Shown: positions 1 to 28,207 of the stretch, piece after piece | Position numbering within the stretch: the first letter of the stretch is position 1 | Layout of the letters: each line of letters opens with the position of its first letter | IMG/VR virus record: IMGVR_UViG_2541047937_000003 | Location: 1 to 33,630 of that record | Strand: one strand, 5' to 3' | Length of the DNA stretch: 33,630 nucleotides | DNA from: a virus | Lineage: Duplodnaviria; Heunggongvirae; Uroviricota; Caudoviricetes | The notes under the pieces: model-generated | What the model saw: the letters and a program-made list of their open reading frames with translations, nothing else | Database searches by the model: none | Told to the model about the DNA's origin: nothing | Position numbers and translations under genes: made by a program

Positions 1-1254
1 ATGCTGGAACAAATGGGCATTGCCGCGAAGCAAGCCTCGTATAAATTAGCGCAACTCTCCAGCCGCGAAAAAAATCGCGTGCTGGAAAAAATCGCCGATG
101 AACTGGAAGCACAAAGCGAAATCATCCTCAACGCTAACGCCCAGGATGTTGCTGACGCGCGAGCCAATGGCCTTAGCGAAGCGATGCTTGACCGTCTGGC
201 ACTGACGCCCGCACGGCTGAAAGGCATTGCCGACGATGTACGTCAGGTGTGCAACCTCGCCGATCCGGTGGGGCAGGTAATCGATGGCGGCGTACTGGAC
301 AGCGGCCTGCGTCTTGAGCGTCGTCGCGTACCGCTGGGGGTTATTGGCGTGATTTATGAAGCGCGCCCGAACGTGACGGTTGATGTCGCTTCGCTGTGCC
401 TGAAAACCGGTAATGCGGTGATCCTGCGCGGTGGCAAAGAAACGTGTCGCACTAACGCTGCAACGGTGGCGGTGATTCAGGACGCCCTGAAATCCTGCGG
501 CTTACCGGCGGGTGCCGTGCAGGCGATTGATAATCCTGACCGTGCGCTGGTCAGTGAAATGCTGCGTATGGATAAATACATCGACATGCTGATCCCGCGT
601 GGTGGCGCTGGTTTGCATAAACTGTGCCGTGAACAGTCGACAATCCCGGTGATCACAGGTGGTATAGGCGTATGCCATATTTACGTTGATGAAAGTGTAG
701 AGATCGCTGAAGCATTAAAAGTGATCGTCAACGCGAAAACTCAGCGTCCGAGCACATGTAATACGGTTGAAACGTTGCTGGTGAATAAAAACATCGCCGA
801 TAGCTTCCTGCCCGCATTAAGCAAACAAATGGCGGAAAGCGGCGTGACATTACACGCAGATGCAGCTGCACTGGCGCAGTTGCAGGCAGGCCCTGCGAAG
901 GTGGTTGCTGTTAAAGCCGAAGAGTATGACGATGAGTTTCTGTCATTAGATTTGAACGTCAAAATCGTCAGCGATCTTGACGATGCCATCGCCCATATTC
1001 GTGAACACGGCACACAACACTCCGATGCGATCCTGACCCGCGATATGCGCAACGCCCAGCGTTTTGTTAACGAAGTGGATTCGTCCGCTGTTTACGTTAA
1101 CGCCTCTACGCGTTTTACCGACGGCGGCCAGTTTGGTCTGGGTGCGGAAGTGGCGGTAAGCACACAAAAACTCCACGCGCGTGGCCCAATGGGGCTGGAA
1201 GCACTGACCACTTACAAGTGGATCGGCATTGGTGATTACACCATTCGTGCGTAA
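1..1254 (+). CDS. proA: gamma-glutamyl phosphate reductase ProA, complete 417 aa
   Basis: ORF 1..1254 translates [24 protein letters not shown]... to a TAA stop; recognised as enterobacterial ProA from memory, no search run. Window begins exactly at the ATG. Confidence 0.95.
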
Positions 1255-1368
1255 ATAAAACCGGGTGATGCAAAAGTAGCCATTTGATTCACAAGGCCAT
1301 TGACGCATCGCCCGGTTAGTTTTAACCTTGTCCACCGTGATTCACGTTCGTGAACATGTCCTTTCAGG

Positions 1369-1444
1369 GCCGATATAGCTCAGTTGGTAGAGCAGCGCAT
1401 TCGTAATGCGAAGGTCGTAGGTTCGACTCCTATTATCGGCACCA
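1369..1444 (+). tRNA. thrW: tRNA-Thr (anticodon CGU), 76 nt with CCA end
   Basis: GCCGATATAGCTCAGTTGGTAGAGCAGCGCATTCGTAATGCGAAGGTCGTAGGTTCGACTCCTATTATCGGCACCA folds as a cloverleaf (7-bp acceptor stem, GTTCGACTCC T-arm, anticodon loop TTCGTAA). An integrase gene starts 15 nt downstream, the usual attL arrangement. Confidence 0.93.
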
Positions 1445-1458
1445 TTAAAATCAATAAG

Positions 1459-2622
1459 TTACACATCATTAGTACCTTCCTTATTTTTTGACTGGGACAA
1501 ATTTGGGACCGATGGGTTCAGGATCGAGTCTATTTGCCGTGCGTGTTCGGTAAGGTGATTAGGTGCAAGGTGAGCATATCGACGAACCATTTCGATAGAC
1601 TCCCAGCCTCCCATTTCCTGTAACACTGACAACGGGACTCCGGCTTGAACCAGCCAACTTGCCCAGGTGTGTCTCAAGTCGTGAAATCTGAAATCATCAA
1701 TACCAGCCCGTCTCAGCGCCGCTTTCCAGGCTGTGTTTGCGTCATACCGCATCTTCCTTACTGTTGGCGCTTTCGTTCCGTCTGGTTTGGTACAGCTTTC
1801 CTTGTACACAAATACCCAACGGTGATGATTCCCGATTTGTTTTTTCAATACGCGACATGCAGTATCATTCAGCGCAACGCCAATTGCGCGGTTTGATTTA
1901 CTCTCTTCCGGGTTTATCCATGCCACCCGGCGCTGCATATCTATTTGTTGCCATTCAAGGTTGATGATGTTCGAGCGTCTTAAGCCTGTTGCCAGTGCAA
2001 ATTCAACAACAGACTTTAATGGCTCCGGACATTCATCAATCAGCCTTTGTGCTTCATGGGGCTCCAGCCAGCGGATCCGTTTATTCTTTGGTTGAGGCAC
2101 TTTAATAATTGGTGCCTTATCCAGCATTTTCCATTCACGCTCTGCGGCTCTTAGTAGGGCCTTTATAAATGAAAGATGCGTAGCCTTCGTTGCAACGGAC
2201 GCTGGTTTTGGCGTGTATTCTGGAACAGGTTTCCCTTTTTTTCTGCATGCTTCTGCCCTGAGTTTCCAGTTTTCCTCATGACGCCGGTTTGTCATTTTCT
2301 GCATTGCTGAATAAATTTTTGATTCAGTAATGTCTCTTAGTTGCATTCCTGCGAAATGTTGAAGCCAGAATCCGATCCGGCTTTTGTCATCGTCCAGTGA
2401 TTTTTTATGTGCTTTCTCTTCAAGCCACCTGACACACGCTTCCTCGAACGTTATATCAGGTATTTCACCAAGTTTGCTGACCCGCCATGCTTCAGCCTTT
2501 AGCTTGTCATGGAGTTCTGTCGCCTGCCTTTTGTCCTTTGTTCCAAGAGACTGTTTAAATCTTTTACCGTTCGGCAATGTGAAACTGGCGTACCATATTT
2601 CACCTCTGCGGAAGAGTGACAT
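1459..2622 (-). CDS. phage integrase, tyrosine recombinase (387 aa)
   Basis: C-terminal [39 protein letters not shown] is the tyrosine-recombinase catalytic box; directly adjacent to the tRNA; GAGGAAAG RBS upstream of the ATG. Confidence 0.9.
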
Positions 2623-2849
2623 TTTCTTTCCTCTGTTATGCCATCACCCGCGCTCACCTGGACAGTATGCAGCGGAGACTGAAGAGCCGCAATGCAGGCT
2701 TGTCGTGTTGTGAGGTAAGGAGATTTATTCTTAGTGGGATCTTTGCGTGTTGCCTGAAGACGCCCCGTGCGTATCCAGTTAATGGCAGTCGGTCTGGATA
2801 TCTTGAGAAAATGACAGGCCTCATCGAGTGTGAGGCTGTATGGCTCCAT
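2499..2849 (-). CDS. AlpA/Xis-like excisionase, HTH DNA-binding protein
   Basis: Start chosen at internal ATG ([32 protein letters not shown]...) which overlaps the upstream stop (TAATG). The 3' 124 nt overlap the integrase start, so the true C-terminus is uncertain. Confidence 0.6.
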
Positions 2850-3154
2850 TATTTCACCTCTTGTTGTGACATTGTTGAAAAATGGATACCTGCTCGTTGC
2901 TGCCAGACGATCCAACCGAGAGTCATATCCCATGCCATGTATTCGTTATCGCCGTTTTTTGCTCTCCGACGATCTACTAAGTCACCGAAACGCTTTTCCA
3001 TGAATAATTCATAAGCTTCGCGTTCATCTGGTTCTACTTCCAGAGATAGGAGTGCGATTTCATAAGCACGGCGCTCAATATCGTCTCGCACGTCAAGGCT
3101 GCTGATACGCTCTTTAATTTCTTTAATCAGTTCTTTGTCGGTAAAAGTGGTCAT
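2849..3154 (-). CDS. hypothetical early-left protein, 101 aa (YfdT-like by length and position)
   Basis: ORF with translationally coupled neighbours on both sides; charged helical sequence; family assignment from memory only. Confidence 0.55.
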   Translation of the reverse strand: MTTFTDKELIKEIKERISSLDVRDDIERRAYEIALLSLEVEPDEREAYELFMEKRFGDLVDRRRAKNGDNEYMAWDMTLGWIVWQQRAGIHFSTMSQQEVK

Positions 3155-3516
3155 TATGCTCCAGCCTCCGGTGCTTTTGGCATTACTGCCCAGTGAGTGA
3201 TATTGACGTTTTCAAGGTCCCCGACCTGAAATGTCCACTGCCATTCTCCGGTTTCTTTTTGTCCCCAGGTGTACCAGAGAGAACGCCAGCCAATTAGCCA
3301 GCCTTCTCCGTTAGCATCGAATAACAAAACACTTTCATTTGCTGGTGGCAGTTCAGTTGACACTGGTATTACTTTGTTTTCCTGTGCTGCACATTTAGCT
3401 TCAAGCGCATCGAATTTACGCACCAGGTATTCAGCATCTGTTTCATTCACTTTCAGATCTCGCGGTACACATCTCCCACGAAGAAACCCTTCCATTTCGA
3501 AAACATTCATGCGCAT
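3154..3516 (-). CDS. DUF551-like protein, 120 aa (YfdS-like)
   Basis: Trp-rich C-terminal segment (WRSLWYTWGQKETGEWQWTF...THWAVMPKAPE) resembles DUF551; start and stop overlap neighbouring genes. Confidence 0.55.
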   Translation of the reverse strand: MRMNVFEMEGFLRGRCVPRDLKVNETDAEYLVRKFDALEAKCAAQENKVIPVSTELPPANESVLLFDANGEGWLIGWRSLWYTWGQKETGEWQWTFQVGDLENVNITHWAVMPKAPEAGA

Positions 3517-4043
3517 TTGCGTAACTCCGATAACTCGTTAAAACGTTCCATAAACATCCCGTAGGCATGGCCCGGTGCCTGTGGAATCACTTTGAACATC
3601 TCTGTTGCCGGGATACCTTCCAGTACAGGCCAGAAAGAGCCATCATCAAGCCCGAGATCGCGGCGTTCGGTTGCCAGCATAATGAGATCGGCATATTTCA
3701 CTGGCGTGCTCATAACAGGAGGTAACCCGTATTTCTCACGGATTACGGCGTCTATTTTTTCTTCCATCCGTTTATAGTCAGGAAGAAGTCGTTTCAGTGG
3801 TGCGGGGATGTCCTGGCAATATGCTTCTGTTGCATCATGCATTAAAGCTTCAAAAGCAAATTCCTGTGGCACCAGCTGGCTGCAAAGCACCGCATGTTGG
3901 GCGACACTGTAGAAGTGTGAAAGATGTCCTGCAAAGCGACAGATATTTGAAAGGGAAATCGCGATATCGTTAATAACGATGTCGTCTTTATTTATCCTGT
4001 CATAATAAAAATGCTTCCCGGAAAAAGTTTTAATAAATGACAT
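3507..4043 (-). CDS. HD-domain phosphohydrolase, 178 aa (YfdR-like 5'-deoxynucleotidase)
   Basis: HD-type metal-binding motifs (...AQHAVLCSQL..., ...ALMHDATEAYCQDIP...). Start set at second ATG (MSFIKTF), which has a GGAGA RBS; the track ORF begins 27 nt further upstream. Confidence 0.65.
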   Translation of the reverse strand: MSFIKTFSGKHFYYDRINKDDIVINDIAISLSNICRFAGHLSHFYSVAQHAVLCSQLVPQEFAFEALMHDATEAYCQDIPAPLKRLLPDYKRMEEKIDAVIREKYGLPPVMSTPVKYADLIMLATERRDLGLDDGSFWPVLEGIPATEMFKVIPQAPGHAYGMFMERFNELSELRKCA

Positions 4044-4136
4044 TTTGTTCTCCACGTATATGCGCTGCACCGCGCTGAGTTTGGGTAAAAGGAAGCCCTC
4101 ACCATCCGGTGATTATTGAGTTAATTACGTTTCCAT

Positions 4137-4158
4137 AAATGCCCCCGCAGGGGCATTT
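4137..4158 (-). terminator. GC-rich hairpin between the YfdQ-like and YfdR-like genes (possible attenuator or RNA stability element)
   Basis: AAATGCCCC-cgca-GGGGCATTT, perfect 9-bp stem; only a weak T tract follows on the minus strand. Confidence 0.25.
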
Positions 4159-4170
4159 GCAGTAATGAAA

Positions 4171-4995
4171 TCAGGCGGTGAAAGTACCAATAAAGGTTTC
4201 TACTTTGCTGTCTTTGAATTTCTCAACAAGCAGATCACGAAATTCGTTAGCCATATCTTCCTGCACTGCTTCCAGCTGAATAATGCGCAGAACCAGTACA
4301 GGACGATCGCCAGTGATAATGCTGAGGCGTAATTTAAACGGACGTTCTTTCAGACCTTCAAACGGAACGCATTTAAATTCAAATGCCACTGGCATAATGT
4401 CTTTGGTCTTCGCTTCGACAGATTCCATCAGGGAGCGTTTGCCGCTGAAGTCATTATCTTCAAAATCAGCGGTCTGGTTTGCTTCAATCGTGATTTTACG
4501 GATTGCCGCAGCCGCTTTTGTTGCCTGAATGGCGTCACCATTAGCATCAAAGCCCACAAGGTAGTCGGCCCAGTCTTCAATCCATTCTGCCAGTGACTTC
4601 TGGGAGTTACGCTCGCCGTTAACAGACAACAGAGCAGAGAACGGTGCTGTCTTTTTCAGTTTGAGTGTGGCGGTGTTATCTGCGTGACCTGGTTCATCAA
4701 TAGTACCCAGGTTAAGCACACTGACGGCACGCATATTATCAGCATCGATAAAGCAGCGGGTGCCTTCATCTGCAAGATCTTTAGAATAACGGGTAAAGTC
4801 ATCGATGCTGGCAGTGGAAAGCGCACCACGGAAACGGAAGCGATTTAAATTAAATTTTTCCAGATCATGAATGCGGAAATTCTCAGGCAATGCCACAGCA
4901 TCGGCACCAATCTTACTGATAATTTCATTAACACCCTGAGCAGAAATAAGGGCATGGATTTGATTAATTGCGGTTGCGTCTAAGTTCTGAGACAT
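4171..4995 (-). CDS. YfdQ-like protein (DUF2303 family), 274 aa
   Basis: Complete ORF, typical codon usage, same length as YfdQ of CPS-53; family from memory, not verified. Confidence 0.6.
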
Positions 4996-5060
4996 AATAA
5001 GTCCTCACTATATAAAGATATTCAGTGATGAGATAAATAATCAGTTAATTAAAAACGATA

Positions 5061-5423
5061 TTAACGACCTGCTGCGCGGAGTTTTCCGTCAGGTTCACCG
5101 GCAAGAGTCAGCAACTGTCCCTGGTCTTCCTGCAGAATAGTCAGGCGACCACCGCGATTGACATACATCGGCGTTTCGGTGGTGTCTTCTTCGGAAATTT
5201 TCCCGCGGTTAGTCGGGCGAACATATGAGAGTTTGTGTTTGATTTTCACTCGGTTCTCATCAAACGGTTCGATTTCCAGGTTGAGCGAGACCTTACCTTT
5301 GGTTTTCGTGTTCATCACACCGGAAGCGACTTCACTGAGAACTGCGCCGATTTTGGTTTCAAATACGCCGCCGTCCAGCTCCCCGATAAATGCCTGCACA
5401 TCAGTACTGCGTTCGCTAGCCAT
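5061..5423 (-). CDS. hypothetical protein, 120 aa (YfdP-like), first gene of the early-left cluster
   Basis: Start set at ATG preceded by GAGGAG RBS (MASERSTDVQAFIGELDGG...); the longer 226-aa track ORF runs into GC-rich non-coding DNA. Confidence 0.6.
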   Translation of the reverse strand: MASERSTDVQAFIGELDGGVFETKIGAVLSEVASGVMNTKTKGKVSLNLEIEPFDENRVKIKHKLSYVRPTNRGKISEEDTTETPMYVNRGGRLTILQEDQGQLLTLAGEPDGKLRAAGR

Positions 5424-5891
5424 TTTGCTGCTCCTCATCATATCGACCCTGCAAGGTCGGTTAGTTTCTCCACAAAACAGAGAAGAACACCTGCGGTGGC
5501 TGCCGCCCGGATGGATTGGGTTATGAGCCCGTCGTCCGGTGATGCTCTTCTCTGTTTTGTAAAAAGGACGGTACCAGCCGGAAGCAAGGGTACAAGCTGG
5601 TACCGCCAAGACTACACACAGCATAAAGTTGTGGTGCCGGGTGCCTCCCGGTGCCTGGCGAAGGTTGCACACCAGGCGGGTGGGTATCCACAGAAGGTCG
5701 ACTGTCAGCCTCAACCTTAACCCGCGTGCGCTGAGCCGCATTCACCACAACGCTAAGGATTCTCTCTGGTTGAAAATACTTAGCTGTTATGTGCCTGCTT
5801 TTAGCCACATCAGGCGAGGTGGACCTAGTTATTCCCCAACAACAAGGATTCGGTTAATCTGGTTATCCCCAACAACGCAAAAGGAAAAGAA

Positions 5892-6326
5892 ATGTCCGGT
5901 AATATCTATACGCTGTACAAATCCCACTGTGAAAATGTTGGAAAGTATCGGGGCATTGAAATCAGTGGGGTAGTGTCATCAGTCGAAATAAGCAAAGTTG
6001 AATCAAGGGCAACATTACTTACTCTTCTGGACCTTGTCTTACATGAGCACCGGAAGAAATTCGGCACTCCCTATAATCAGTTGAATGGGAAAAAGGCTCT
6101 GGTTCACCTTATTCTGATGAAGCATCACTGGATGCCAAAACAGATTAATGAGATGAAATTTGATGAACTTCTTCTTTCAATTCAGGATGAACTCACACTT
6201 GATAAAATAAGCGTAACCGCCCAGAAATTTTTAGATTATCGAGACTGGAGATCACAAATTCATCACTTTGATGATTTTGACGAAAATGAATGGGATCCTA
6301 ATTTGTCTGCACAATATCTAAAGTAA
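5892..6326 (+). CDS. AT-rich accessory protein, 144 aa, unknown function
   Basis: ORF with AAGGAAAAG RBS; visibly lower GC than neighbours; strand opposite to the surrounding early-left genes; own intrinsic terminator at 6562..6590. Confidence 0.6.
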   Translation: MSGNIYTLYKSHCENVGKYRGIEISGVVSSVEISKVESRATLLTLLDLVLHEHRKKFGTPYNQLNGKKALVHLILMKHHWMPKQINEMKFDELLLSIQDELTLDKISVTAQKFLDYRDWRSQIHHFDDFDENEWDPNLSAQYLK

Positions 6327-6504
6327 CATCCTGTGATAAAACCGTGATTTCCTGATCCAGTTTTTTTAAGGAGTCTATTGTTTCCTGTCGATAAGACAGC
6401 ACTTCACGAAGCTGGTTTATAGCTGCCAGCTTCTTTGTCATCCACTCATAAATTTCCTCATCTGTGTAGCCAGGCGCGACGATTTTGGGTTCTGTTTTGT
6501 GCAT
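6298..6504 (-). CDS. small hypothetical protein, 68 aa, convergent with and overlapping the 144-aa gene
   Basis: ATG with GAGGAG RBS 9 nt upstream (MHKTEPKIVAPGYTDEEIYEW...); first ORF downstream of the OL operators. Confidence 0.45.
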   Translation of the reverse strand: MHKTEPKIVAPGYTDEEIYEWMTKKLAAINQLREVLSYRQETIDSLKKLDQEITVLSQDVTLDIVQTN

Positions 6505-6561
6505 TTCACATCTCCTCAAGTTATCAGTTACTTGTTGATGGGGACCAGATTGTTAAAGAGC

Positions 6562-6590
6562 TAAGCGTCCTGTAGGGCGCTTTTTTGTTG
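6562..6590 (+). terminator. rho-independent terminator
   Basis: AGCGTCC-tgta-GGGCGCT stem (one G-U pair) followed by TTTTTTG. Confidence 0.6.
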
Positions 6591-6752
6591 CTAACGAATC
6601 ATCCTGGACTTCATATGCCCCAGGCGGCTACTTCGTGGGCGTCCTGCCTGTTCGTTTTTGACATTTACTGACTGCTTACGACACATGCACCGTGTTGCAA
6701 CCAGATTTTGTTGTAATCCTGTAGTTGGTCTGGAACAAAAGATAAAATTAAA

Positions 6753-6789
6753 TTGCGAGATATGCAAGTGGTATTTGCGAGATATGCAA
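6753..6789. promoter_or_regulatory. two tandem 15-bp operator copies (OL-like), TTGCGAGATATGCAA at 6753..6767 and 6775..6789
   Basis: Identical 15-mers with palindromic TTGCG...GCAA ends, 22-bp centre-to-centre, just beyond the cI terminator; a third related copy is at 7557..7571 between cI and cro. Confidence 0.6.
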
Positions 6790-6799
6790 ATTTATAGGT

Positions 6800-6825
6800 A
6801 ATAAAAAGCCACCTTTCGGTGGCCG
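6800..6825 (-). terminator. rho-independent terminator of the cI-like gene
   Basis: GCCACC-tttc-GGTGGC hairpin (6808..6823) followed on the minus strand by TTTTTAT; lies 20 nt after the cI stop. Confidence 0.7.
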
Positions 6826-6843
6826 ATGGATGGGATATTGAGG

Positions 6844-7536
6844 TTAATTATGTCTCTTAAGGGTTTGCGACTGACTGATTAAGACCTTTCCAAAGACCAT
6901 GAATCGGTGTTCGTTTTCGCTAGTAATTCCCCATTCACGGTAAATCTGGTTATCAGAAATCACCAGCAGTTTGTCAGGAATCATTTGAAGTCTTTTAACG
7001 TATATTTTGTCATCAAAACCAAAGACATATATACCATCACCATCAAACTGATTGATGCTGACATCAACGAAGATGAGATCTCCTGGCTCAATGGTTGGAC
7101 ACATACTGTCCCCACGAACGTTGATAACTTTGATGTGATTGGCTGGTCGTCCGCCGAACATTGATACAGCATTATCAGTTCTGTATTCGATGGCATGAAT
7201 CACATCAATGACATCACCGCCCTGGATAAGGCCATTTCCCGCACTGGCACTGATATCCAGCATTTCAATACGGAACACATCCTTCACCTGCGCAACATCC
7301 TCATTATTACTGTTTTTATATACAGTATTACTTTTGTGGGCAGAGGTAAAGAGATCAGCAATATCAACACCTAAGCTCTTGGCAATATTACTCAGTGTTT
7401 GTTCGGTAAATTGTTTTTGCTTACCCGTTTCTAAGCGCGAGATGTTCGCCGCATCTACTCCTATCGCTTCAGCGAGATCGGCGATTTTCATGTTCTTCGC
7501 TTGGCGAAGTTGTCTGACTCGGTTTCCTATGTTCAT
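6844..7536 (-). CDS. cI-type repressor, N-terminal HTH plus C-terminal S24 LexA-like peptidase domain (230 aa)
   Basis: N-terminus MNIGNRVRQLRQAKNMKIADLAEAIGVDAANISRLETGKQ (HTH); C-terminus GDSMCPTIEPGDLIFVD...YVKRLQ (Ser/Lys dyad); divergent from a cro-like gene. Confidence 0.85.
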   Translation of the reverse strand: MNIGNRVRQLRQAKNMKIADLAEAIGVDAANISRLETGKQKQFTEQTLSNIAKSLGVDIADLFTSAHKSNTVYKNSNNEDVAQVKDVFRIEMLDISASAGNGLIQGGDVIDVIHAIEYRTDNAVSMFGGRPANHIKVINVRGDSMCPTIEPGDLIFVDVSINQFDGDGIYVFGFDDKIYVKRLQMIPDKLLVISDNQIYREWGITSENEHRFMVFGKVLISQSQTLKRHN

Positions 7537-7633
7537 GCGTTTATTACATTTCTTTATTGCGTGATAAGCAAATCAACTTGCGCAAAATAATTGCGTGAAA
7601 TAACATGCATAACGCGCAATATTTGGAGGGCGT
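7537..7633. promoter_or_regulatory. divergent cI/cro promoter-operator region (OR/PR/PRM equivalent)
   Basis: Contains TTGCGTGATAAGCAA (7557..7571), palindromic TTGCGCAA (7578..7585) and further TTGCG/CGCAA half-sites; candidate PR -35 TTGCGC (7578..7583) and -10 TAACAT (7601..7606) with 17-bp spacer; GGAGGG RBS before cro. Confidence 0.6.
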
Positions 7634-7894
7634 ATGCAATCACCATTACGAAATGTGCGTAAGGCGCATGGTTTCACTTTGCAGCATGTTGCTGCGGGTG
7701 TTCAAGTCAATCCAGCGACGTTGAGTCGTATTGAGAGGCTGGAGCAGATTCCATCTATCGAGCTTGCAGAACGTTTAGCCAATTTTTTTAAGGGTGAAGT
7801 CAGCGAAATGCAGATTCTTTATCCGGCACGTTTTCAATCTAGCCAAAACCAGAATGGGTTTAAACCACAGGAACAGGAGGTGAACCGTGGGTAA
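7634..7894 (+). CDS. Cro-like HTH regulator, 86 aa
   Basis: HTH segment FTLQHVAAGVQVNPATLSRIERLEQIPSIELAERLANFF; divergent from the cI-like gene. Confidence 0.7.
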   Translation: MQSPLRNVRKAHGFTLQHVAAGVQVNPATLSRIERLEQIPSIELAERLANFFKGEVSEMQILYPARFQSSQNQNGFKPQEQEVNRG

Positions 7895-8438
7895 GCATCA
7901 CTGGAAAGTAGAAAAACAGCCTGAGTGGTACGTGAAAGCTGTCAGAAAAACTATCGCAGCGTTGCCGGGGGGGTACGCTGAAGCTGCTGACTGGCTGGAT
8001 GTAACAGAGAACGCATTATTTAACCGCCTTCGTGCCGATGGCGATCAGATTTTCCCGCTGGGATGGGCAATGATTTTGCAACGTGCTGGTGGAACTCACT
8101 TCATTGCTGACGCTGTGGCGCAGTCTGCAAATGGCGTCTTTGTGTCTCTTCCTGATGTCGAGGATGTGGACAACGCCGATATCAACCAACGCCTGCTGGA
8201 GGTCATTGAACAGATCGGCAGTTATTCAAAACAGATTCGTTCAGCAATTGAAGACGGTGTAGTGGAACCGCATGAGAAGACAGCAATTAACGACGAGCTG
8301 TACCTCTCAATTTCGAAGCTGCAGGAGCATGCAGCACTGGTCTACAAAATTTTTTGCATTTCAGAAAGTAATGACGCCCGCGAGTGTGCAGCTCTGGGCG
8401 CCGTGGCGTGTCGTGACTGTGGAGAAACTAACGCATGA
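7887..8438 (+). CDS. hypothetical early-right protein, 183 aa (possibly CII-like or YdaT-like regulator)
   Basis: Start overlaps cro stop; C-terminal Cys cluster ([14 protein letters not shown]); family not recognised with confidence. Confidence 0.5.
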
Positions 8439-8793
8439 ACAGTTTAACAACACACTACCGTCGCTCGCAACTGATTGCGCTTCCTGTACCGGGTGGAAAA
8501 GCGAAGGTGGAGTATTGCTATGCAGTAAATGTACCAGGTGGCAGGGTAATTGTAACCCACAGCTTTGCAGAGTGGGCTGTGGGTGATTTTAACCGGCAAA
8601 AGGAGACAGTCCTTTGCGACAAGTTAACCGCTGGTTCAAAGATCACTACGGAGTACCCGTCAGAGTCATTCGTTGGGAGCCGGAAACACAACGGGTTATC
8701 TACCTCCGTGAAGGCTATGAGCATGAGTGCTTCAGCCCGCTCGAACAGTTTCGTCGTAAATTCAGGGAAATAGAGGTCGGTCATGAGCACTAA
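8435..8793 (+). pseudogene. hypothetical gene with apparent frame change: protein-like N-terminal part in one frame (8435..about 8610), protein-like C-terminal part in another (8614..8793)
   Basis: Track ORF 8435..8773 has a plausible first 59 aa then S/T-rich low-complexity tail; the other frame from TTG 8614 (AAGGAG-like RBS GGAGA at 8602..8606) gives [59 protein letters not shown] and ends overlapping the O-like start. Confidence 0.35.
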
Positions 8794-9724
8794 ATTAACC
8801 GGCTATGTATGGGATGGTTGCGCAGCGTCAGGCATGAAATTATCCAGCGTGGCAATTATGGCCCGCCTGGCTGATTTCAGTAATGACGAAGGTGTGTGCT
8901 GGCCATCAATTGAAACCATTGCCCGTCAGATTGGCGCGGGGATGAGTACCGTCAGGACGGCTATCGCACGGCTGGAAGCAGAAGGCTGGTTAACGCGTAA
9001 GGCGCGTCGCCAGGGTAACCGCAATGCGTCGAATGTTTATCAGCTTAACGTTGCGAAGCTTCAGGCAGCGGCATTTTCTCAACTGTCAGATTCTGACCCG
9101 TCAAAATCTGACGCATCAAAATCTGACCCGTCAAAATTTGATGCGTCGAAATCTGGCAAAAAAGCGGGTTTTCACCCGTCAGAATCTGGCGGGGATCCGT
9201 CAGTAAAATCAAAACATGATCCGTCAGATAAAAAACCTTCTCGTCCGGACGCTTCGCAACCGGACACGCAGACGGATGAACAGGATTTTTTAACTCGCCA
9301 TCCTGATGCGGTTGTATTCAGCCCTAAAAAGCGCCAGTGGGGAACGCAGGATGATTTGACCTGCGAACAGTGGCTCTGGAAAAAAATCATCGCCCTGTAC
9401 GAGCAAGCCGCCGAATGTGACGGCGAGGTGGTTCGTCCCAAAGAACCGAACTGGACAGCCTGGGCAAACGAAATTCGCCTAATGTGTGTGCAGGATGGTC
9501 GTACTCACAAACAAATCTGCGAGATGTACAGCCGCGTCAGCCGCGATCCGTTCTGGTGCCGTAACGTGCTCAGCCCGTCGAAGCTGCGGGAAAAATGGGA
9601 TGAGCTTTCCCTGCGCTTATCACCGTCCGTCAGCACGTACACCGAAAAACGCGAAGACCCGTACTTCAAATCCAGTTACGACAACGTGGACTACAGCCAG
9701 ATCCCGGCAGGATTCAGGGGGTGA
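8783..9724 (+). CDS. replication initiator, lambda O-like (N-terminal wHTH, iteron-encoded low-complexity linker), 313 aa
   Basis: N-terminal HTH (WPSIETIARQIGAGMSTVRTAIARLEAEGWL); central SDSDPSKSDASKSDPSKFDASKS repeats encoded by DNA iterons; position between cro region and rusA. Confidence 0.65.
   Translation: MSTKLTGYVWDGCAASGMKLSSVAIMARLADFSNDEGVCWPSIETIARQIGAGMSTVRTAIARLEAEGWLTRKARRQGNRNASNVYQLNVAKLQAAAFSQLSDSDPSKSDASKSDPSKFDASKSGKKAGFHPSESGGDPSVKSKHDPSDKKPSRPDASQPDTQTDEQDFLTRHPDAVVFSPKKRQWGTQDDLTCEQWLWKKIIALYEQAAECDGEVVRPKEPNWTAWANEIRLMCVQDGRTHKQICEMYSRVSRDPFWCRNVLSPSKLREKWDELSLRLSPSVSTYTEKREDPYFKSSYDNVDYSQIPAGFRG
9083..9236. repeat. iteron cluster (putative origin of replication) inside the O-like gene
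   Basis: At least four tandem 15-bp repeats CCGTCAAAATCTGAC / GCATCAAAATCTGAC / CCGTCAAAATTTGAT / GCGTCGAAATCTGGC, then an A-rich stretch and three more degenerate CCGTCAG copies. Confidence 0.65.
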
Positions 9725-9726
9725 TC

Positions 9727-10129
9727 ATGAGTCTTTTGAATGAAGTTCAGAAATTCATTGAAGCCCATCCGGGGTGTACTTCCGGAGACATTGCGGATGC
9801 TTTTGCAGGTTACTCACGGCAGCGCGTTCTGCAGTCAGCAAGCAAGTTACGTCAGAGTGGGCGTGTGGCTCACCGTTGTGAAGGAGATACACGCAGACAT
9901 TTCCCACGCCTGCCGTTCAGTGAATGCAGCGGTAGAGCATCTTCGTGCACTGGAGAAAAAAGGCGTCATCACGATAAAGCGTGGCGTGGCCCGGGGGATA
10001 ACGCTTCATACCGCGGTGAAGGACGACGACAGCGAGGCGGTCGGGATTATCCGCGCACTGCTTGCCGGTGAGGAAAACGCCAGGCTGCGTGCAGCCCACT
10101 GGTTACATGAGAGAGGCCTGAAAGTATGA
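9727..10129 (+). pseudogene. LexA-N-terminal-type winged-helix DNA-binding gene, reading frame interrupted (+1 shift or ~97-nt insert between 9817 and 9913)
   Basis: One frame gives MSLLNEVQKFIEAHPGCTSGDIADAFAGYS (LexA helix 1-2 pattern), another gives RSVNAAVEHLRALEKKGVITIKRGVARGITLH (LexA recognition helix and wing). They are contiguous in LexA but 97 nt apart and out of frame here. The two track ORFs 9721..10071 and 9740..10129 each have an Arg-rich or odd half. Confidence 0.4.
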
Positions 10130-10515
10130 AGCTGATCTTGCCTTTCCCGCCCAGCGTGAACACGTACTGGCGACACCCCAACAAAGGGGCGTTTGCTGGT
10201 AAGAGTCTGATAAGCGCGGCGGGGCGAAAATTCCAGAGCGCGGCGTGCGCAGCAATAGTTGAGCAGTTACGTCGTCTGCCGAAACCAACGTCGGCACCTG
10301 CTTCAGTGGAGATCGTGTTGTTTCCTCCGGATAACCGGATCCGCGATCTGGACAACTATAACAAGGCGCTGTTTGACGCCCTGACCCACGCGGGTGTGTG
10401 GGAAGACGACAGTCAGGTGAAAAGAATGCTGGTGGAGTGGGGACCGGTTATCCCGGAAGGGAAGGTCGAGATCACTATCAGTAAGTACGAGAAAACGGCG
10501 GGTGCAGCCGCCTGA
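10126..10515 (+). CDS. rusA: RusA-family Holliday junction resolvase, 129 aa
   Basis: LPFPPSVNTYWRH N-terminus and DLDNYNKALFDALTHAGVWEDD acidic catalytic region typical of RusA; nin-region position. Confidence 0.8.
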   Translation: MKLILPFPPSVNTYWRHPNKGAFAGKSLISAAGRKFQSAACAAIVEQLRRLPKPTSAPASVEIVLFPPDNRIRDLDNYNKALFDALTHAGVWEDDSQVKRMLVEWGPVIPEGKVEITISKYEKTAGAAA

Positions 10516-10534
10516 TCAAGAGGAGAAACGAAGT

Positions 10535-10795
10535 ATGAATAATCTGATGGTCATTGATGGTATTGAAGTTCGTCGTGATACTTATGGGCGTTACAGCCTG
10601 AACGATCTGCACAGGGCTGCCGGTTCTCTGGATAAGCATAAGCCTGCATTCTGGCTCCGCAATGAGCAAACTGAACGTTTAATAAGCGAGTTGCAGATTT
10701 GCAACTCGGTCAATATAGAGCCAGTTAACGTTATTCGTGGCGGAAATAACCAGGGGACGTATGTCTGCAAAGAACTGGTGTACCGTGGCATTTGA
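10535..10795 (+). CDS. KilA-N domain protein, 86 aa
   Basis: MNNLMVIDGIEVRRDTYGRYSLNDLHRAAGS...KPAFWLRNEQTERLISEL matches the KilA-N/Bro-N pattern; start set at ATG with AGGAGA RBS. Confidence 0.55.
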   Translation: MNNLMVIDGIEVRRDTYGRYSLNDLHRAAGSLDKHKPAFWLRNEQTERLISELQICNSVNIEPVNVIRGGNNQGTYVCKELVYRGI

Positions 10796-10884
10796 AGAGA
10801 AGTATGGTTCCCAGCTGGAGCTGATATTTCGTTTTATCGATCGTGCGCTGGCAATAGGCGTACTGGCGTAAGTGGAGAACGAGC

Positions 10885-11637
10885 ATGAACCTTGAAGCCT
10901 TACCGAAATATTACTCCCCGAAATCTCCAAAACTGAGCGATGACGCACCGGCGACAGGCTCTGGTGGTTTAACGATTACGGATGTGATGGCTGCGCAGGG
11001 GATGGTGCAGTCGAAAGCACCGCTTGGGTTTGCCTTATTCCTGGCAAAAGTTGGTGTTCAGGATCCTCAGTTTGCGATTGAAGGTCTGCTCAATTACGCG
11101 ATGGCACTGGATAACCCGACATTGAATAAATTGAGTGAAGAAACCCGGCTACAGATCATTCCTTACCTTGTGAATTTTGCCTTTGCTGATTATTCCAGGT
11201 CTGCGGCAAGTAAGGCTCGCTGTGAGCATTGTGCTGGTACTGGATTTCATAATGTATTGCGCGAAGTGGTGAAACACTCCAGAAGCGGGGAGTCTGTTAT
11301 CAAGGAAGAGTGGGTGAAGGAACTATGTCAGCATTGTCATGGTAAGGGAGAAGTCAGCACAGCGTGCAGAGGGTGTAAGGGTAAAGGTATTGTCCTGGAT
11401 GAAAAAAGAACCCGGCTTCATGGTACGCCTGTTTATAAGATTTGTGGGCGTTGCAATGGAAAACGGTTTAGTCGTTTACCAACCACACTGGCGCGGCATC
11501 ATGTCCAGAAACTGGTACCAGACCTGACGGATTATCAGTGGTACAAAGGATATGCAGATGTCATTGATAAACTGGTTACAAAGTGCTGGCAGGAGGAATC
11601 TTACGCTGAAGCACAATTGAGAAAGGTGACAAGATAA
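10885..11637 (+). CDS. putative late-gene regulator in the Q (antiterminator) position; protein with four CxxCxGxG Zn-finger repeats, 250 aa
   Basis: CEHCAGTG, CQHCHGKG, CRGCKGKG, CGRCNGKR repeats; last early-right gene before the late terminator and lysis cassette. Q assignment is positional. Confidence 0.4.
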   Translation: MNLEALPKYYSPKSPKLSDDAPATGSGGLTITDVMAAQGMVQSKAPLGFALFLAKVGVQDPQFAIEGLLNYAMALDNPTLNKLSEETRLQIIPYLVNFAFADYSRSAASKARCEHCAGTGFHNVLREVVKHSRSGESVIKEEWVKELCQHCHGKGEVSTACRGCKGKGIVLDEKRTRLHGTPVYKICGRCNGKRFSRLPTTLARHHVQKLVPDLTDYQWYKGYADVIDKLVTKCWQEESYAEAQLRKVTR

Positions 11638-11744
11638 GTGATCTTCGCCGAAAATGGTGACATCATGCTTGCAATTTTCAAAAAAACATGGATAAGATTT
11701 TCTCAACGATGGGCTTTATGTATCTGCTGTTGATAACCTTCAAG

Positions 11745-11770
11745 AACTCGCCATTGAGCGGGTTTTTTAT
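11745..11770 (+). terminator. candidate late-leader terminator (tR'-like) downstream of the Q-like gene
   Basis: CTCGC-cattga-GCGGG hairpin (one G-U pair) followed by TTTTTTATT; a TATAAT hexamer follows at 11805..11810. Confidence 0.3.
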
Positions 11771-11840
11771 TGTGTAAAAACAGAATGACGGTATTAATTA
11801 GTAATATAATTATTCGACCATACAACTAGGGGTCGAAAAA

Positions 11841-12626
11841 ATGTATGTTTTTGAGTTAATCAAGCCAGGCAGTAATCTTAAGTTTGAAAACAGAGAGTTA
11901 GAATGGACGTTTAATAACTTATTATCCCATTTAGAAACTGCATTTTATGATGCTAATGTAGCATTAAATTTATTCGAACAGGAAAGAACTAAGAATAACA
12001 GTAAATTCGATAATATTTCTCAGACATGGCAAGCTGATGTACAGAAACGACAAGCACTGGAAATGCTGGTTCGTAAAGAGTTTGGTTATCAACCTTATGA
12101 ATATTCAGAACAGGTTTTTTCAGAGGTCGAGCTACGTCTAAAAAGAGAAAAATGGAATAACGGTGAATATCCGTTGGCTCATCAACACAGATTGATCTTC
12201 TTACATGCAAAATCATTTCTCTACGCTTTGGATGCTATTGATAAATTTTTAAAGGTAATTTCAAAAGAAAATGGCGCGCCAGAGAACATTAAAAAATTGC
12301 ATGAACAGCTTTCTAAAGACTTTCCGAATTTAAGAAAGGTAAGGAATTCAGCTCAACACATGGAAGACAGAGTTCGTGGGCTTGGTGCAGAGAAAGAACC
12401 AAAGCCAATAAAACTCAAACCTGTAAATAATATTCATGTTGTTGCACCTCAGGGGGCATTGATGTTGAATAACTTATTCGGAACTAAATTTGGGTGCACT
12501 ATGGCTGATGGCTATTATGGTGAAGTAGATATTTCGACAGAGTCTTTGGCAAAGTTGCAAAATTTAATCCAAAAAGTTTTTAATTCCTTCAGTTGGGAAG
12601 GACCAAAGCAACACCTTCCCCGATAA
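11841..12626 (+). CDS. AT-rich moron protein, 261 aa, unknown function; contains an R-x4-H motif (RNSAQH, aa 168-173): candidate abortive-infection/defence protein
   Basis: Complete ORF with AGGGG RBS; markedly AT-rich with atypical codon usage; sits between the Q-like gene and the holin; followed by a perfect bidirectional terminator. Confidence 0.6.
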   Translation: MYVFELIKPGSNLKFENRELEWTFNNLLSHLETAFYDANVALNLFEQERTKNNSKFDNISQTWQADVQKRQALEMLVRKEFGYQPYEYSEQVFSEVELRLKREKWNNGEYPLAHQHRLIFLHAKSFLYALDAIDKFLKVISKENGAPENIKKLHEQLSKDFPNLRKVRNSAQHMEDRVRGLGAEKEPKPIKLKPVNNIHVVAPQGALMLNNLFGTKFGCTMADGYYGEVDISTESLAKLQNLIQKVFNSFSWEGPKQHLPR

Positions 12627-12630
12627 CATT

Positions 12631-12675
12631 TTCTTTTTTATTGAAAGCCGCCAAATAATTGGCGGCTTTTTTATT
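12631..12675. terminator. bidirectional rho-independent terminator
   Basis: Perfect 11-bp stem AAAGCCGCCAA / TTGGCGGCTTT (12644..12654, 12659..12669), 4-nt loop, T tracts on both sides. Confidence 0.8.
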
Positions 12676-12715
12676 TCACAGTACCCGCAAATATCGCGAG
12701 GTGAGAGATGACGAA

Positions 12716-13042
12716 ATGCCTCATAACCCAAATACCTGGCTGGACTTGGTCCAGAGCTGGTGGCGTGGAGACACACCGCTGGGCGCAGTGATTATGTCGA
12801 TTGTTATGGCTGGCTTGCGCATTGCATATTTTGGCGGTGGTGGGGGCTGGAAACGAAAAACACTCGAGATTTTGCTCTGTGGTGCTCTGACGCTGACTTT
12901 TGCATCCGCTCTTGAGTATGTCGGATGGCCTAAATCTCTTTCTGTTGCCATTGGTGGTGGCGTTGGGTTGATCGGTGTCGATGCTATTCGTGGGGCTGCA
13001 ATGAGTGTAATCGGTAATAAGTTTGGTGGCTCTAAGGAGTAA
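12716..13042 (+). CDS. holin, 108 aa, three predicted TM segments
   Basis: Hydrophobic segments LGAVIMSIVMAGLRIAYF, TLEILLCGALTLTFASAL, LSVAIGGGVGLIGVDAI; immediately upstream of the endolysin; start set at ATG with GAGGTGAGAG RBS (track ORF starts at a TTG inside the terminator). Confidence 0.7.
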   Translation: MPHNPNTWLDLVQSWWRGDTPLGAVIMSIVMAGLRIAYFGGGGGWKRKTLEILLCGALTLTFASALEYVGWPKSLSVAIGGGVGLIGVDAIRGAAMSVIGNKFGGSKE

Positions 13043-13045
13043 TTT

Positions 13046-13522
13046 ATGCAGGTACTAAATTCCCAGCGTAAAGCTTTCCTTGATATGGTGGCTTGGTCAG
13101 AAGGAACGGATAACGGACGACAACCGACACGTAACCACGGTTATGACGTTATTGTCGGTGGTGAACTCTTCACTGATTACTCCGATCACCCTCGCAAACT
13201 TGTCACGCTAAACCCGAAACTCAAGTCAACAGCCGCCGGACGTTACCAGCTTCTTTCACGCTGGTGGGATGCTTACCGTAAACAGCTTGGCCTGAAAGAT
13301 TTTTCTCCAGAAAGCCAGGACGCTGTAGCTCTGCAGCAGATTAAAGAGCGTGGCGCTTTACCGATGATTGACCGCGGCAATATTCGTCAGGCAATCGACC
13401 GTTGCAGCAATATCTGGGCGTCGTTACCAGGTGCAGGTTACGGTCAGTATGAACATAAAATCGGCGACCTGATTGCCCGATTTAAAGAGGCTGGTGGGGT
13501 AGTAAATGAAGCTGAGATATAA
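13046..13522 (+). CDS. endolysin, lambda R-type lytic transglycosylase, 158 aa
   Basis: NSQRKAFLDMVAWSEGTDNGRQPTRNHGYDVIVGGELFTDYSDHPRKLVTLNPKLKST... is near-identical to lambda R as I recall it; same length. Confidence 0.92.
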   Translation: MQVLNSQRKAFLDMVAWSEGTDNGRQPTRNHGYDVIVGGELFTDYSDHPRKLVTLNPKLKSTAAGRYQLLSRWWDAYRKQLGLKDFSPESQDAVALQQIKERGALPMIDRGNIRQAIDRCSNIWASLPGAGYGQYEHKIGDLIARFKEAGGVVNEAEI

Positions 13523-13898
13523 GCTGGTTATTGTTGCCTTCTTTGTTACCGTCATTGGTTCCTTCATCTGGTCTGTCGGGCATTACTACAGCAAATATCA
13601 GCACGAAAAGGAGCGTGCTGATGAGGCTGTACGAAATGCTGAATCGGCAACTGCCATTACCAATAACGTCCTGCAATCAATACAAATCGTAAATACAGCA
13701 CTGGAGGCTAGCCAGCATGCAAAACAACAAATCGCACTGGAGTCACAGAGAACCCAGGAAGATATCAAAGTGGCTGTTGCGAATGATGATTGCGCTTCAC
13801 GTCCTGTGCCTGCTGCCGCTACTGACCGGTTGCGGAAGTACGCGGACAGTTTACGTGAGCACCCCAGTAGCACCACTGTCAACCACCCTAACTTCTGA
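13506..13898 (+). CDS. Rz-like i-spanin, 130 aa
   Basis: N-terminal TM anchor (LVIVAFFVTVIGSFIWSV) then helical region; start overlaps the endolysin stop; contains an Rz1-like ORF in the +1 frame. Confidence 0.6.
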   Translation: MKLRYKLVIVAFFVTVIGSFIWSVGHYYSKYQHEKERADEAVRNAESATAITNNVLQSIQIVNTALEASQHAKQQIALESQRTQEDIKVAVANDDCASRPVPAAATDRLRKYADSLREHPSSTTVNHPNF

Positions 13899-14031
13899 AA
13901 CACCGATTCCAATTATACCTAGTCCACTGACATATGGTGCTAGCCTAGACCTGAATGCAAGTTTGTTATCTGCATTAGGGCAGTGCAATAGAGATAAAAA
14001 GGCTATCCGCAGTATAAACAATGCTAGATGA
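13783..14031 (+). CDS. Rz1-like o-spanin lipoprotein
   Basis: +1 frame relative to Rz; signal peptide with lipobox LLTGC (MMIALHVLCLLPLLTGCGS), Pro-rich mature part; extends 133 nt beyond Rz. Start uncertain (13717 or 13783). Confidence 0.5.
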   Translation: MMIALHVLCLLPLLTGCGSTRTVYVSTPVAPLSTTLTSETPIPIIPSPLTYGASLDLNASLLSALGQCNRDKKAIRSINNAR

Positions 14032-14109
14032 AGATTTTAATTTAAATTGAAGATGCCTATTACTAGACATCTTTATAATTTATGCTCAAACCAAAGTGGA
14101 TTTGTAATA

Positions 14110-14484: not shown

Positions 14485-14611
14485 GTTATAACCTGTGTTT
14501 AGTTACTTTTATTAGAACCTTGTTATCAGATTTTTCTCATAAAGGAAAGAGTGAAAGAGAAAAATGAATCTCTTTTGTCAAATATGTCTATCAGATTAAA
14601 GAGAGTATTTT

Positions 14612-14962: not shown

Positions 14963-14988
14963 TAATAATTCTCAACTGCCTGAGGGGA

Positions 14989-15048: not shown

Positions 15049-15087
15049 ATACCCGCGAAAAATGAAATTTAACCAGGAGTGCCGCAT

Positions 15088-16277: not shown

Positions 16278-16279
16278 TA

Positions 16280-18543: not shown

Positions 18544-18582
18544 ATGCGGCACTCCTGGTTAAATTTCATTTTTCGCGGGTAT

Positions 18583-27739: not shown

Positions 27740-28207
27740 TTCTTTTCCTTTTGCGTTGTTGGGGATAACCAGATTAACCGAATCCTTGTTGTTGGGGAAT
27801 AACTAGGTCCACCTCGCCTGATGTGGCTAAAAGCAGGCACATAACAGCTAAGTATTTTCAACCAGAGAGAATCCTTAGCGTTGTGGTGAATGCGGCTCAG
27901 CGCACGCGGGTTAAGGTTGAGGCTGACAGTCGACCTTCTGTGGATACCCACCCGCCTGGTGTGCAACCTTCGCCAGGCACCGGGAGGCACCCGGCACCAC
28001 AACTTTATGCTGTGTGTAGTCTTGGCGGTACCAGCTTGTACCCTTGCTTCCGGCTGGTACCGTCCTTTTTACAAAACAGAGAAGAGCATCACCGGACGAC
28101 GGGCTCATAACCCAATCCATCCGGGCGGCAGCCACCGCAGGTGTTCTTCTCTGTTTTGTGGAGAAACTAACCGACCTTGCAGGGTCGATATGATGAGGAG
28201 CAGCAAA

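Follow-up and report, generated by a model that had tools for sequence, protein, structure and literature searches.

A probable STnc100-family RNA leader ahead of the early-left genes of a lambdoid Escherichia coli prophage

Described leader and prophage RNAs and the core of the island

DicF, which is processed from the dicB operon of Qin, is a short RNA of a repressor-controlled early operon in a defective lambdoid prophage, and a hairpin precedes boxA in rrn and follows it in lambda nut. The putL and putR elements of HK022, an N-less lambdoid phage, are RNAs of about 70 nt with two stem-loops that lie at the 5' end of the transcript, in the pL leader for instance, upstream of terminators (PMC9378689). 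The STnc100 family (RF02076; EcOnc27 or sRNA103 of E. coli O157, with the related PasD1 and PasD2) is among the most abundant families of small RNAs (sRNAs) in bacterial genomes (PMC9029176). EDL933 carries 11 copies, one of them verified by northern blotting (PMC5331693); EcOnc27, the copy downstream of stx2, binds Hfq (PMC12711010, PMC12370729); and PasD1/2 of enteropathogenic E. coli, which a preprint relates to STnc100 (10.64898/2026.05.13.724894), are Hfq-dependent and were recovered by RIL-seq (PMC8550237). Here we consider the island at positions 5424-5891 of IMG/VR record IMGVR_UViG_2541047937_000003 (33,630 nt, analysed over its full length and called the window below), which lies directly before yfdP, the first early-left gene of a lambdoid E. 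coli prophage, and which an earlier note made from the sequence alone had described as a GC-rich, highly structured, non-coding stretch. We put the probability at roughly 0.85 that the island is a non-coding, structured RNA leader of the STnc100 family, read from the minus strand, which is the strand that matters here and which the earlier note had left unspecified. It is a sub-threshold variant of a known RNA family at a new genomic position, accompanied by conserved terminator and hairpin modules.

Rfam at its curated cut-offs reported no match in the island. In a permissive scan, one of the checks that the earlier note had recommended, the full STnc100 model (1-206) aligned with 5781..5558 on the minus strand at 43.4 bits (E 3e-8 in a 501-nt search, 2e-6 when the whole window was searched), and the corresponding scores of relatives were 35.1 bits in ST64B and 29.2 bits in K-12 e14. 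The core (Table 1) has the closing helix UGGUG/CACCA of the family, its invariant UGGUGAAU exact at 5747-5740 and its invariant 21-mer ACCGGGAGGCACCCGGCACCA exact at 5652-5632, and helices P1, P4 and P5 stand at the model positions in the cmscan alignment, in RNAalifold predictions and in the P4 partner test given below. It also shares with STnc100 the prophage-borne location, the family-wide pseudoknot and a Rho-independent terminator soon after the core, whose stem starts about 20 nt past the core and which cmscan aligns as the terminal hairpin of the model. It differs in P1, which reads GCGGC...GCnCGC instead of CCCCC...GGGG and contains two model pairs that are non-standard in the cmscan alignment, and in the two further conserved hairpins that follow it. 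Its place in the pL leader before yfdP is also different, as other members lie near Q, stx, lpxR and late-region esterase genes (10.64898/2026.05.13.724894; PMC12370729).

The stems listed in the earlier note are real RNA helices, kept by compensatory changes in related phages. RNAalifold, which cannot predict pseudoknots, recovered P0, in which one pair is compensated from UA to GC, together with P1 and P5, from ten members of the window's subtype. In the wider family the P1 stem occurs as CCCC/GGGG, CCUUU/AAAGG, CUCC/GGAG or CCA/UGG with a conserved CUnnGCG loop; P4 shows C-G changed to U-A and U-G to C-G in ST64B; and P5 reads GGUGG-AGGCA-CCACC in phages LLS and Kp4866-6, with three compensatory pairs. 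The stretch that follows P1 is complementary to the P4 loop in every subgroup, with sequences that are specific to the subgroup (CCAGUC/GACUGG, AUCAGC/GCUGGU, UUAACC/GGUUAA and others), and the two therefore form a pseudoknot; in the window its 3' strand is the CAACCUU (5667-5661) held by the 9-nt loop of P4. In pair counts on a plain MAFFT alignment of 38 cores P0 and P5 were clear, but P4 and the pseudoknot were only 37-52% paired because the variable interior was misaligned, and partner-swap permutation tests were used instead, with 70 relatives of which no pair was more than 85% identical and with true and swapped partners treated alike. True pseudoknot partners gave -8.67 kcal/mol versus -4.65 +/- 0.28 for swapped ones (best of 10,000 permutations -5.80), true P4 partners -10.26 versus -6.54 +/- 0.24 kcal/mol, and the extension of P0 had 1.99 extra pairs versus 1.47 +/- 0.07. 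The pseudoknot may be unreported, since the RF02076 structure line from cmscan lacks one and the preprint on STnc100 and PasD used RNAalifold (10.64898/2026.05.13.724894).

Scanning genome and viral collections for the exact 21-mer ACCGGGAGGCACCCGGCACCA returned at least 120 loci in each. The matches listed span many genera of Enterobacteriaceae and at least 230 distinct contexts, and among these matches UGGUGAAU stands 64-109 nt upstream of the 21-mer in about 90% of 230 distinct contexts. Throughout the family the closing helix extends and co-varies (GCA/UGC, UUG/CAA), the interior is variable and P4 lies just before the 21-mer. The window's subtype, in which UGGUGAAU is followed by GCGGCU(C)AGCGC instead of the usual CCCCC...GGGG, accounts for 28 contexts. 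In ST64B, Buttiauxella and one viral contig it lies at least 165-250 nt downstream of a recognisable pL with operators, and in several genera it stands directly before yfdP or another small gene. Unlike a stand-alone sRNA gene, the core in the window has no promoter of its own directly upstream, which fits a place inside a leader: none of the 28 contexts has a sigma-70 match of at least 8/12 placed 4-14 nt upstream of the core, where transcription would start at the closing helix, and among canonical cores 45 of 177 have a match of at least 9/12 there. No STnc100 match, and no match to put, for which Rfam holds no model, was returned by Rfam for the leaders of phiNP, LLS, E. coli L37, Kp4866-6 and HK022; by eye, LLS and Kp4866-6 carry a variant core, as does mEp460, and phiNP a different cassette. 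Where a terminator follows the core in the family, it ends at a median of 50 nt past the core and the orientation of the next gene is split 69 to 58, a near-even division that is as expected for stand-alone sRNA genes. In Superficieibacter two or three complete cores stand in tandem, 220-270 nt apart (L033:6373-6916, L032, L044, L070).

Modules downstream of the core and a proposed mechanism

The island is as GC-rich as the earlier note had said (GC 0.53-0.56 over 5250-5850 versus 0.37-0.45 to the right), and the RNA folding that it had proposed gave z = -5.4 for the minus strand of the 468 nt, with none of 100 shuffles folding as well. The longest perfect inverted repeat measures 15 bp, versus 6-12 bp in 200 base shuffles. 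The repeats themselves were found where the earlier note had placed them: the 14-bp pair (CAAAACAGAGAAGA at 5473-5486, with its exact complement at 5546-5559), which a repeat finder extends to 25-nt arms (5472-5496 and 5536-5560, 84% complementary); the 9-bp pair (GGTACCAGC at 5570-5578, GCTGGTACC at 5596-5604), likewise extendable to a perfect 10 bp (5569-5578 and 5596-5605); GCCTGG at 5653 with CCAGGC at 5672; and the direct repeats GTTATTCCCCAACAAC and GTTATCCCCAACAAC. The pair CGACC/GGTCG is also real but lies at 5444-5448 and 5455-5459, one base away from where it had been put. A further perfect 9-bp pair, GTTGTGGTG/CACCACAAC (5628-5636 and 5743-5751, 106 nt apart), had not been listed.

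Between the end of the core and the start codon, seven phages (the window, K-12 e14, ST64B, phiNP, LLS, Kp4866-6 and E. coli L37) were folded with RNAalifold on an ordinary, unfitted MAFFT alignment. The terminator sequences are replaced between phages (GGUACCAGC, GGCGUC, GCCCAUCG, GGUUAUCCAG) while their pairing is kept, several pairs being changed on both sides, and the tail CCUUUUUACA is invariant. A simple terminator scan had missed this element because its loop of 17 nt exceeds the scan maximum of 8. Over the terminator and the long hairpin together, 15 of 46 predicted pairs are changed on both sides; in the long hairpin these compensatory changes (CG/AU, GC/CG, AU/GC) affect four stem positions and the inner branch. 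The small hairpin, listed at 5442-5461 by the terminator scan, precedes the yfdP start codon (5423-5421), and in ST64B, phiNP, LLS and Kp4866-6 its position is taken by another hairpin, GGCGG-UGGCAxC-CCGCC. Just 5' of the terminator, UGCUGUGUG(U/A)AGUCUU (UGCUGUGUGUAGUCUU) is present in six of the seven leaders, and it is kept even where the core is replaced (phiNP) or variant (LLS, Kp4866-6, mEp460) or where the terminator stem is different. Such a conserved unpaired stretch is what a seed region would look like.

These modules invite comparison with DicF (RF00039), to which the island has a weak match over the seed stretch and the terminal hairpin (19.4 bits, E ~0.1; 28.5 bits in K-12 e14; cut-off 48 bits) and a similar tail, UUGGCGGUAnCAG...CUG..CCGCC(C)UUUUU. 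However, the unpaired 5' part, which in DicF is a conserved pairing region, differs, only the terminator stem resembles DicF, and this stem is wholly replaced in ST64B and LLS. Known self-cleaving ribozymes or riboswitches were also considered and dropped, as Rfam gave no match to any of them at E up to 10 save a chance match of 14.5 bits to the hairpin ribozyme.

Two of the functions suggested in the earlier note, a small RNA gene and a structured leader or attenuator, fit these results, with STnc100-family RNA at the centre of the island and an intrinsic terminator in front of yfdP, and the structured RNA leader upstream of the early-left genes is borne out. We favour, with some reserve, a combined sRNA and attenuator module in the pL leader, and hold with similar reserve that a discrete, terminated sRNA is produced from the island; its action in trans by way of Hfq is a more tentative proposition. 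Polymerase would arrive from pL (~6735), possibly made Rho-resistant by boxA at 6547-6561, and may start at a weak promoter near 5830-5857 as well. A partial stop at the terminator (5607-5561) would release an RNA of about 190-260 nt with an Hfq-type build, in which a structured body at the 5' end is followed by an unpaired seed and by a terminator that ends in a U-tail; its relatives EcOnc27 and PasD1/2, Hfq-bound sRNAs, are built in this way. The terminator would throttle read-through into yfdP-yfdQ-yfdR...xis-int, and would be an attenuator as well because it lies in a repressor-controlled early operon immediately before the first gene. In the read-through RNA, the long and small hairpins would form the 5' untranslated region of the early-left mRNA, where RNase III could plausibly process, or the RNA be stabilised by, the long and near-perfect duplex, by analogy with the lambda N leader and the maturation of DicF.

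Table 1. Positions of the leader features in the window, of their mirror-image copy and of the chromosomal loci with a core before a kdgM-type operon
Feature	Position	Strand	Remarks
Presumed pL	6739..6789	-	-35 TTGCAT, 17-nt spacer, -10 TATCTT; two identical operators TTGCGAGATATGCAA (6753-6767, 6775-6789)
Hairpin and boxA	6547..6582	-	hairpin (6582-6563), then perfect rrn/nut-type boxA GCUCUUUAACAAUCU (6561-6547); ~170 nt after pL
Direct repeats GTTAT(T)CCCCAACAAC	5828-5843, 5862-5876		between ECs1072-family gene start and leader
Motif CCACC-UC-GCCUGA-U-GUGG-CUAAAAG-CAGGC	5793..5822	-	nearly invariant; 26 places among fetched loci
Hairpin GCUAAG...CUUAGC	5752..5784	-	immediately 5' of core; minimum-free-energy fold; conserved in E. 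coli group
STnc100 core	5628..5751	-	~125 nt, closed by 9-bp P0: GUUGUGGUG (5751-5743) and CACCACAAC (5636-5628)
Helix P1 and loop	5721..5739	-	GCGGCUCAGCGCACGC, directly after UGGUGAAU; RNAalifold, window's subfamily
Pseudoknot 5' strand	5712..5718	-	AAGGUUG; partner is P4 loop CAACCUU
Helix P4	5653..5677	-	GCCUGGUG (5677-5670) / CGCCAGGC (5660-5653); GCCTGG/CCAGGC of the earlier note
Helix P5	5637..5651	-	CCGGG-AGGCA-CCCGG within 21-mer ACCGGGAGGCACCCGGCACCA
Candidate seed	5606..5627	-	unpaired AACUUUAUGCUGUGUGUAGUCUUGG, spacer between core and terminator
Intrinsic terminator (predicted)	5561..5607	-	12-bp stem GGCGGUACCAGC / GCUGGUACCGUC (the GGTACCAGC repeat), then UUUUU (5565-5561)
Long branched hairpin	5472..5560	-	89 nt, with the perfect 14-bp repeat; inner part CGACGGGCUCAUAACCCAAUCC nearly invariant
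Small hairpin	5431..5461	-	CGACC-UUGCAG-GGUCG, then yfdP Shine-Dalgarno GAGGAG (5436-5431)
Second copy of whole island	27740..28207	+	mirror image; exact reverse-complement halves
kdgM-type operon loci L011, L024, L026, L027, L028, L034, L036, L042, L052	L027: core 4902, porin gene 5126-5827	reverse (L027)	

Evidence against and alternative readings

Several observations weigh against the island as an STnc100 leader that releases an sRNA. The match lies below the STnc100 gathering cut-off of 47 bits. The transcript is putative, as are its 5' end and its promoter, and the terminator, likewise predicted, has an atypically long loop. A search for seed targets within the window matched the gene itself only. 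The terminator, long hairpin and seed also stand behind a different cassette in phiNP and behind variant cores in mEp460 and LLS; the STnc100 core can therefore be exchanged and may have no bearing on termination. When the core has no terminator behind it, the gene that comes next points the same way in 68 of 86 cases, and in Buttiauxella, Lelliottia and Pseudescherichia a core of the window's subtype stands directly before a gene, without a terminator between them. Finally, in at least nine species a canonical core lies 95-200 nt upstream of a chromosomal operon whose products are a porin of the KdgM family (PF06178) and a pectate lyase of the periplasm (PF06917) and which adjoins a divergent LuxR-type regulator. 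These loci, in Kosakonia, Klebsiella, Raoultella and Enterobacter, lie outside any prophage and their cores are co-oriented with the operon. The terminator-less cores and those before the kdgM operon point to a role in cis rather than to a trans-acting sRNA.

The core may accordingly be a cis-acting structured domain, whether for put- or EAR-like processive antitermination, by which polymerase coming from pL would get past the terminator behind the core, for the riboswitch-like binding of a ligand or protein, or for stabilising or insulating the downstream RNA, a reading that we regard as unlikely but worth keeping in sight. Its compact pseudoknotted fold, with invariant junction nucleotides and variable peripheral helices, resembles aptamer-type RNAs; cores of the window's subtype are always found in leaders or flanked by genes of one orientation, at times 30-45 nt ahead of a start codon and without a terminator; and the early-left genes of the prophage are preceded by a terminator although no N protein can be recognised in it. 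Three settings were seen for the core fold as such: it forms the 5' body of stand-alone prophage sRNAs, lies in the pL leaders of N-less lambdoid phages and precedes the chromosomal kdgM-pectate lyase operon. It is conceivable, if slightly more doubtful, that this fold is a modular, pseudoknotted RNA domain, widespread in Enterobacteriaceae, with a cis effect on any sequence behind it, exerted by binding a ligand, a protein or RNA polymerase, either riboswitch-like or as a third kind of RNA-only antiterminator. However, the terminator stems vary freely while the core is constant, which makes a conserved antiterminator pairing unlikely, and an alternative pairing of this kind was dropped. The same terminator and downstream hairpins also stand behind an unrelated cassette in phiNP, canonical members are short, terminated, Hfq-bound RNAs (PMC5331693, PMC12711010), and tandem complete units and the random orientation of neighbouring genes fit stand-alone genes.

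The suggestion of a put-like element in the earlier note likewise found no support. The island resembles putL and putR in being an RNA element in the pL leader of an N-less lambdoid phage, upstream of a terminator, but its architecture differs, with a helix-closed, pseudoknotted core about 1 kb from pL, and neither sequence nor structure similarity to put was found: in blastn searches of five leaders against HK022 27500-31500, which covers the pL/pR region, the best local matches were 14-31 nt long with E >= 0.03.

A second possibility, to which we give rather little weight, is that the repeats act mainly as DNA, either as operator or promoter sites, serving the divergent ECs1072-family gene together with a second promoter directed leftward, or as junctions at which lambdoid phages swap modules. 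The island is indeed a mosaic, its modules 5891-5823, 5822-5610 and 5609-5424 (minus strand) being found apart in other phages. The pair of direct repeats recurs upstream of the CCACC motif beside three different, unrelated opposite-strand genes, and the sequence upstream of the motif is unrelated between loci (in LLS the motif starts some 20 nt past the -10 box of pL). Neither the repeats nor the motif show variation able to prove RNA pairing, and the repeats bracket what, judging by its sequence, may be a weak promoter, TTAACC-18-AATAAC (5857-5852 / 5833-5828, minus strand). These elements may have a regulatory role as DNA, for the divergent gene or for a second promoter directed leftward. 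Nevertheless, a promoter scan found nothing in 5752-5891, and the reading applies to 5793-5891 only; within 5424-5751, RNA is what the compensatory changes indicate, as do the Rfam match and the unequal folding of the two strands.

It is very improbable that the island codes for protein, be it a product resembling YmfH or additional residues at the N-terminus of YfdP (a 226-aa ORF, 5061..5741), although annotation favours it. The Prokaryotic Genome Annotation Pipeline gives 5438-5748(-) as a 'frameshifted hypothetical protein', and its K-12 orthologue is annotated as the 103-aa YmfH; both calls cover the core, the terminator and the long hairpin. K-12 e14 ymfH (b1142, L003:2576-2887) is orthologous DNA, 90% identical over 5434-5822, and overlies a degraded STnc100-type core together with the terminator and long hairpin. 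In this respect the earlier statement that there is no credible ORF was right in substance, although genes are annotated over this DNA; the protein-coding homologue that it named as evidence to the contrary formally exists in K-12, but the ymfH ORF does not behave as a gene. The YmfH frame, which starts at the GUG of GUGGUGAAU, is not conserved: of 20 distinct homologues no more than two, K-12 and one other locus, keep it for 103 codons, and it stops after 75 codons in 16 and after 19 in two ST64B-type ones; it is open in K-12 because e14 lost one base of the otherwise invariant CCGGGAGGCACCCGG (CCGGGAGGC). A frame upstream of yfdP is open for 106 codons in the window and 126 in ST64B, yet the peptides are unrelated (local score 27) despite 77% DNA identity, and in phiNP and Buttiauxella the frame into yfdP closes within 5-35 codons, being open for a mere 5 in phiNP and 19 in Buttiauxella. 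Insertions and deletions between homologues are of 1, 1 and 20 nt, substitutions are compensatory across the stems, and no Pfam or NCBIfam model matches YmfH. We conclude that the island is not protein-coding, the coding reading being already largely refuted by these data, and that K-12 ymfH and the other protein annotations over it are probably wrong. In a literature search on ymfH the one pertinent item was a Reg-Seq preprint, in which intE-xisE-ymfH is treated as an operon whose start site was observed under gentamicin only. In mEp460, gp36 and gp37 (L005:2061-2614), opposite-strand 'hypothetical proteins' that overlie the pL leader, variant core and terminator, may also be mis-calls.

That the stems are functionless chance by-products of a GC-rich spacer has a negligible probability and is already refuted by the conservation data, for although GC-rich sequence generally folds well and the plus strand of the island also has a negative z (-2.25), the minus-strand fold and the 15-bp repeat surpass all of their shuffles, pairing is conserved at 77% DNA identity and the 21-nt core motif is invariant across many genera.

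Prophage setting and significance

The island lies in the left part of the prophage, which adjoins thrW. By annotated relatives the minus strand carries integrase, yfdT, yfdR, yfdQ and yfdP, followed by the island; to its right are an ECs1072-family gene (+), a 68-73-aa gene and a cI-like repressor (-), and then a cro-like gene and ymfL. In the reading that we hold with moderate confidence, the prophage is a lambdoid one of the SfV/ST64B/e14 type and the island forms the downstream portion of its long, untranslated pL leader, on the transcribed strand and about 1 kb from the promoter. ST64B, mEp460, phiNP, LLS, Kp4866-6 and K-12 e14 have it in the same place, with the repressor gene on one side and the first early-left gene on the other, and the island is present in 2,862 of 5,426 complete E. 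coli genomes. In ST64B, a match to the sRNA isrK above the Rfam cut-off (64.3 bits) lies at L004:21-97(-), on the rightward side of the immunity region.

It should be noted that positions 1-15829 of the window are the exact reverse complement of 17802-33630, and every feature is therein present twice. The second STnc100 match falls at 27850-28073(+) (the first at 5558-5781), tRNA-Thr copies stand at 1369 and 32262, and a search of the window for tRNA and tmRNA genes found nothing beyond these two copies of thrW. The centre, 15830-17801, is an invertible tail-fibre segment (tfaE and tail-fibre genes) flanked by natural 277-bp inverted repeats (15553-15829, 17802-18078). The fold-back palindrome is probably an assembly artefact, since complete genomes show the tail-fibre segment in either orientation and the fold-back in none.

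The presumed pL, which scores below the threshold of the promoter scan, has its operators just left of the repressor's terminator, a layout shared by mEp460. The leader also contains a hairpin and a perfect GCUCUUUAACAA, in an order that is rrn-like and not lambda nut-like. The earlier note had considered a nut site within the island, but this boxA, together with its mirror copy, is the only one and lies about 660 nt upstream, outside 5424-5891. As the earlier note had remarked, no N-like protein is apparent among the window ORFs: no arginine-rich protein of this kind is encoded nearby, the 73-aa and YfdP sequences lack such a motif, and the ORFs examined as possible N-like proteins belong to no Pfam or NCBIfam family. 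The boxA motif has 14 matches in the fetched loci versus about one expected by chance, all in leader orientation (L252:1232 and L253:1239 among them; in an O157 Rac-like prophage with a different hairpin). It always stands just before an opposite-strand gene and a long untranslated leader that transcription from pL must cross, and Nus factors bound at boxA shield long RNAs that are not translated against Rho (PMC7665894).

Two other hairpins were observed in these leaders. One, soon after pL at 6603-6624(-), reads CCUGG-GGCAUAUGAAGU-CCAGG and looks like another leader RNA element; its stem is compensated in phiNP (CCCGG/CCGGG, L248 ~880-915) and ST64B (CCGG/CCGG, L004 ~2195-2230). The other, GGUCCGUUCAAUUCGGAC followed by ACC, mimics a tRNA T-arm about 25 nt before the core in the leaders of ST64B, phiNP and Buttiauxella (L004 ~2470-2500, L248:1290-1312, L059/L060 upstream of the core) and may be a processing signal.

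In annotations the island goes by the labels hypothetical protein, frameshifted pseudogene and, for K-12, ymfH, and the evidence says that it is RNA. This is a useful annotation fix and not a new kind of element. For one copy of the family concerned, a link between its variation and clinical outcome has been described in O157 (PMC12711010), and the family-wide pseudoknot and the layout of exchangeable cassettes offer handles for experiments on the function of the core. In the prophage described here, a branch of STnc100 stands at a new place, in an early-left operon leader that runs toward xis and int and is followed by a terminator, and such a placement would couple the sRNA to control of the excision genes.

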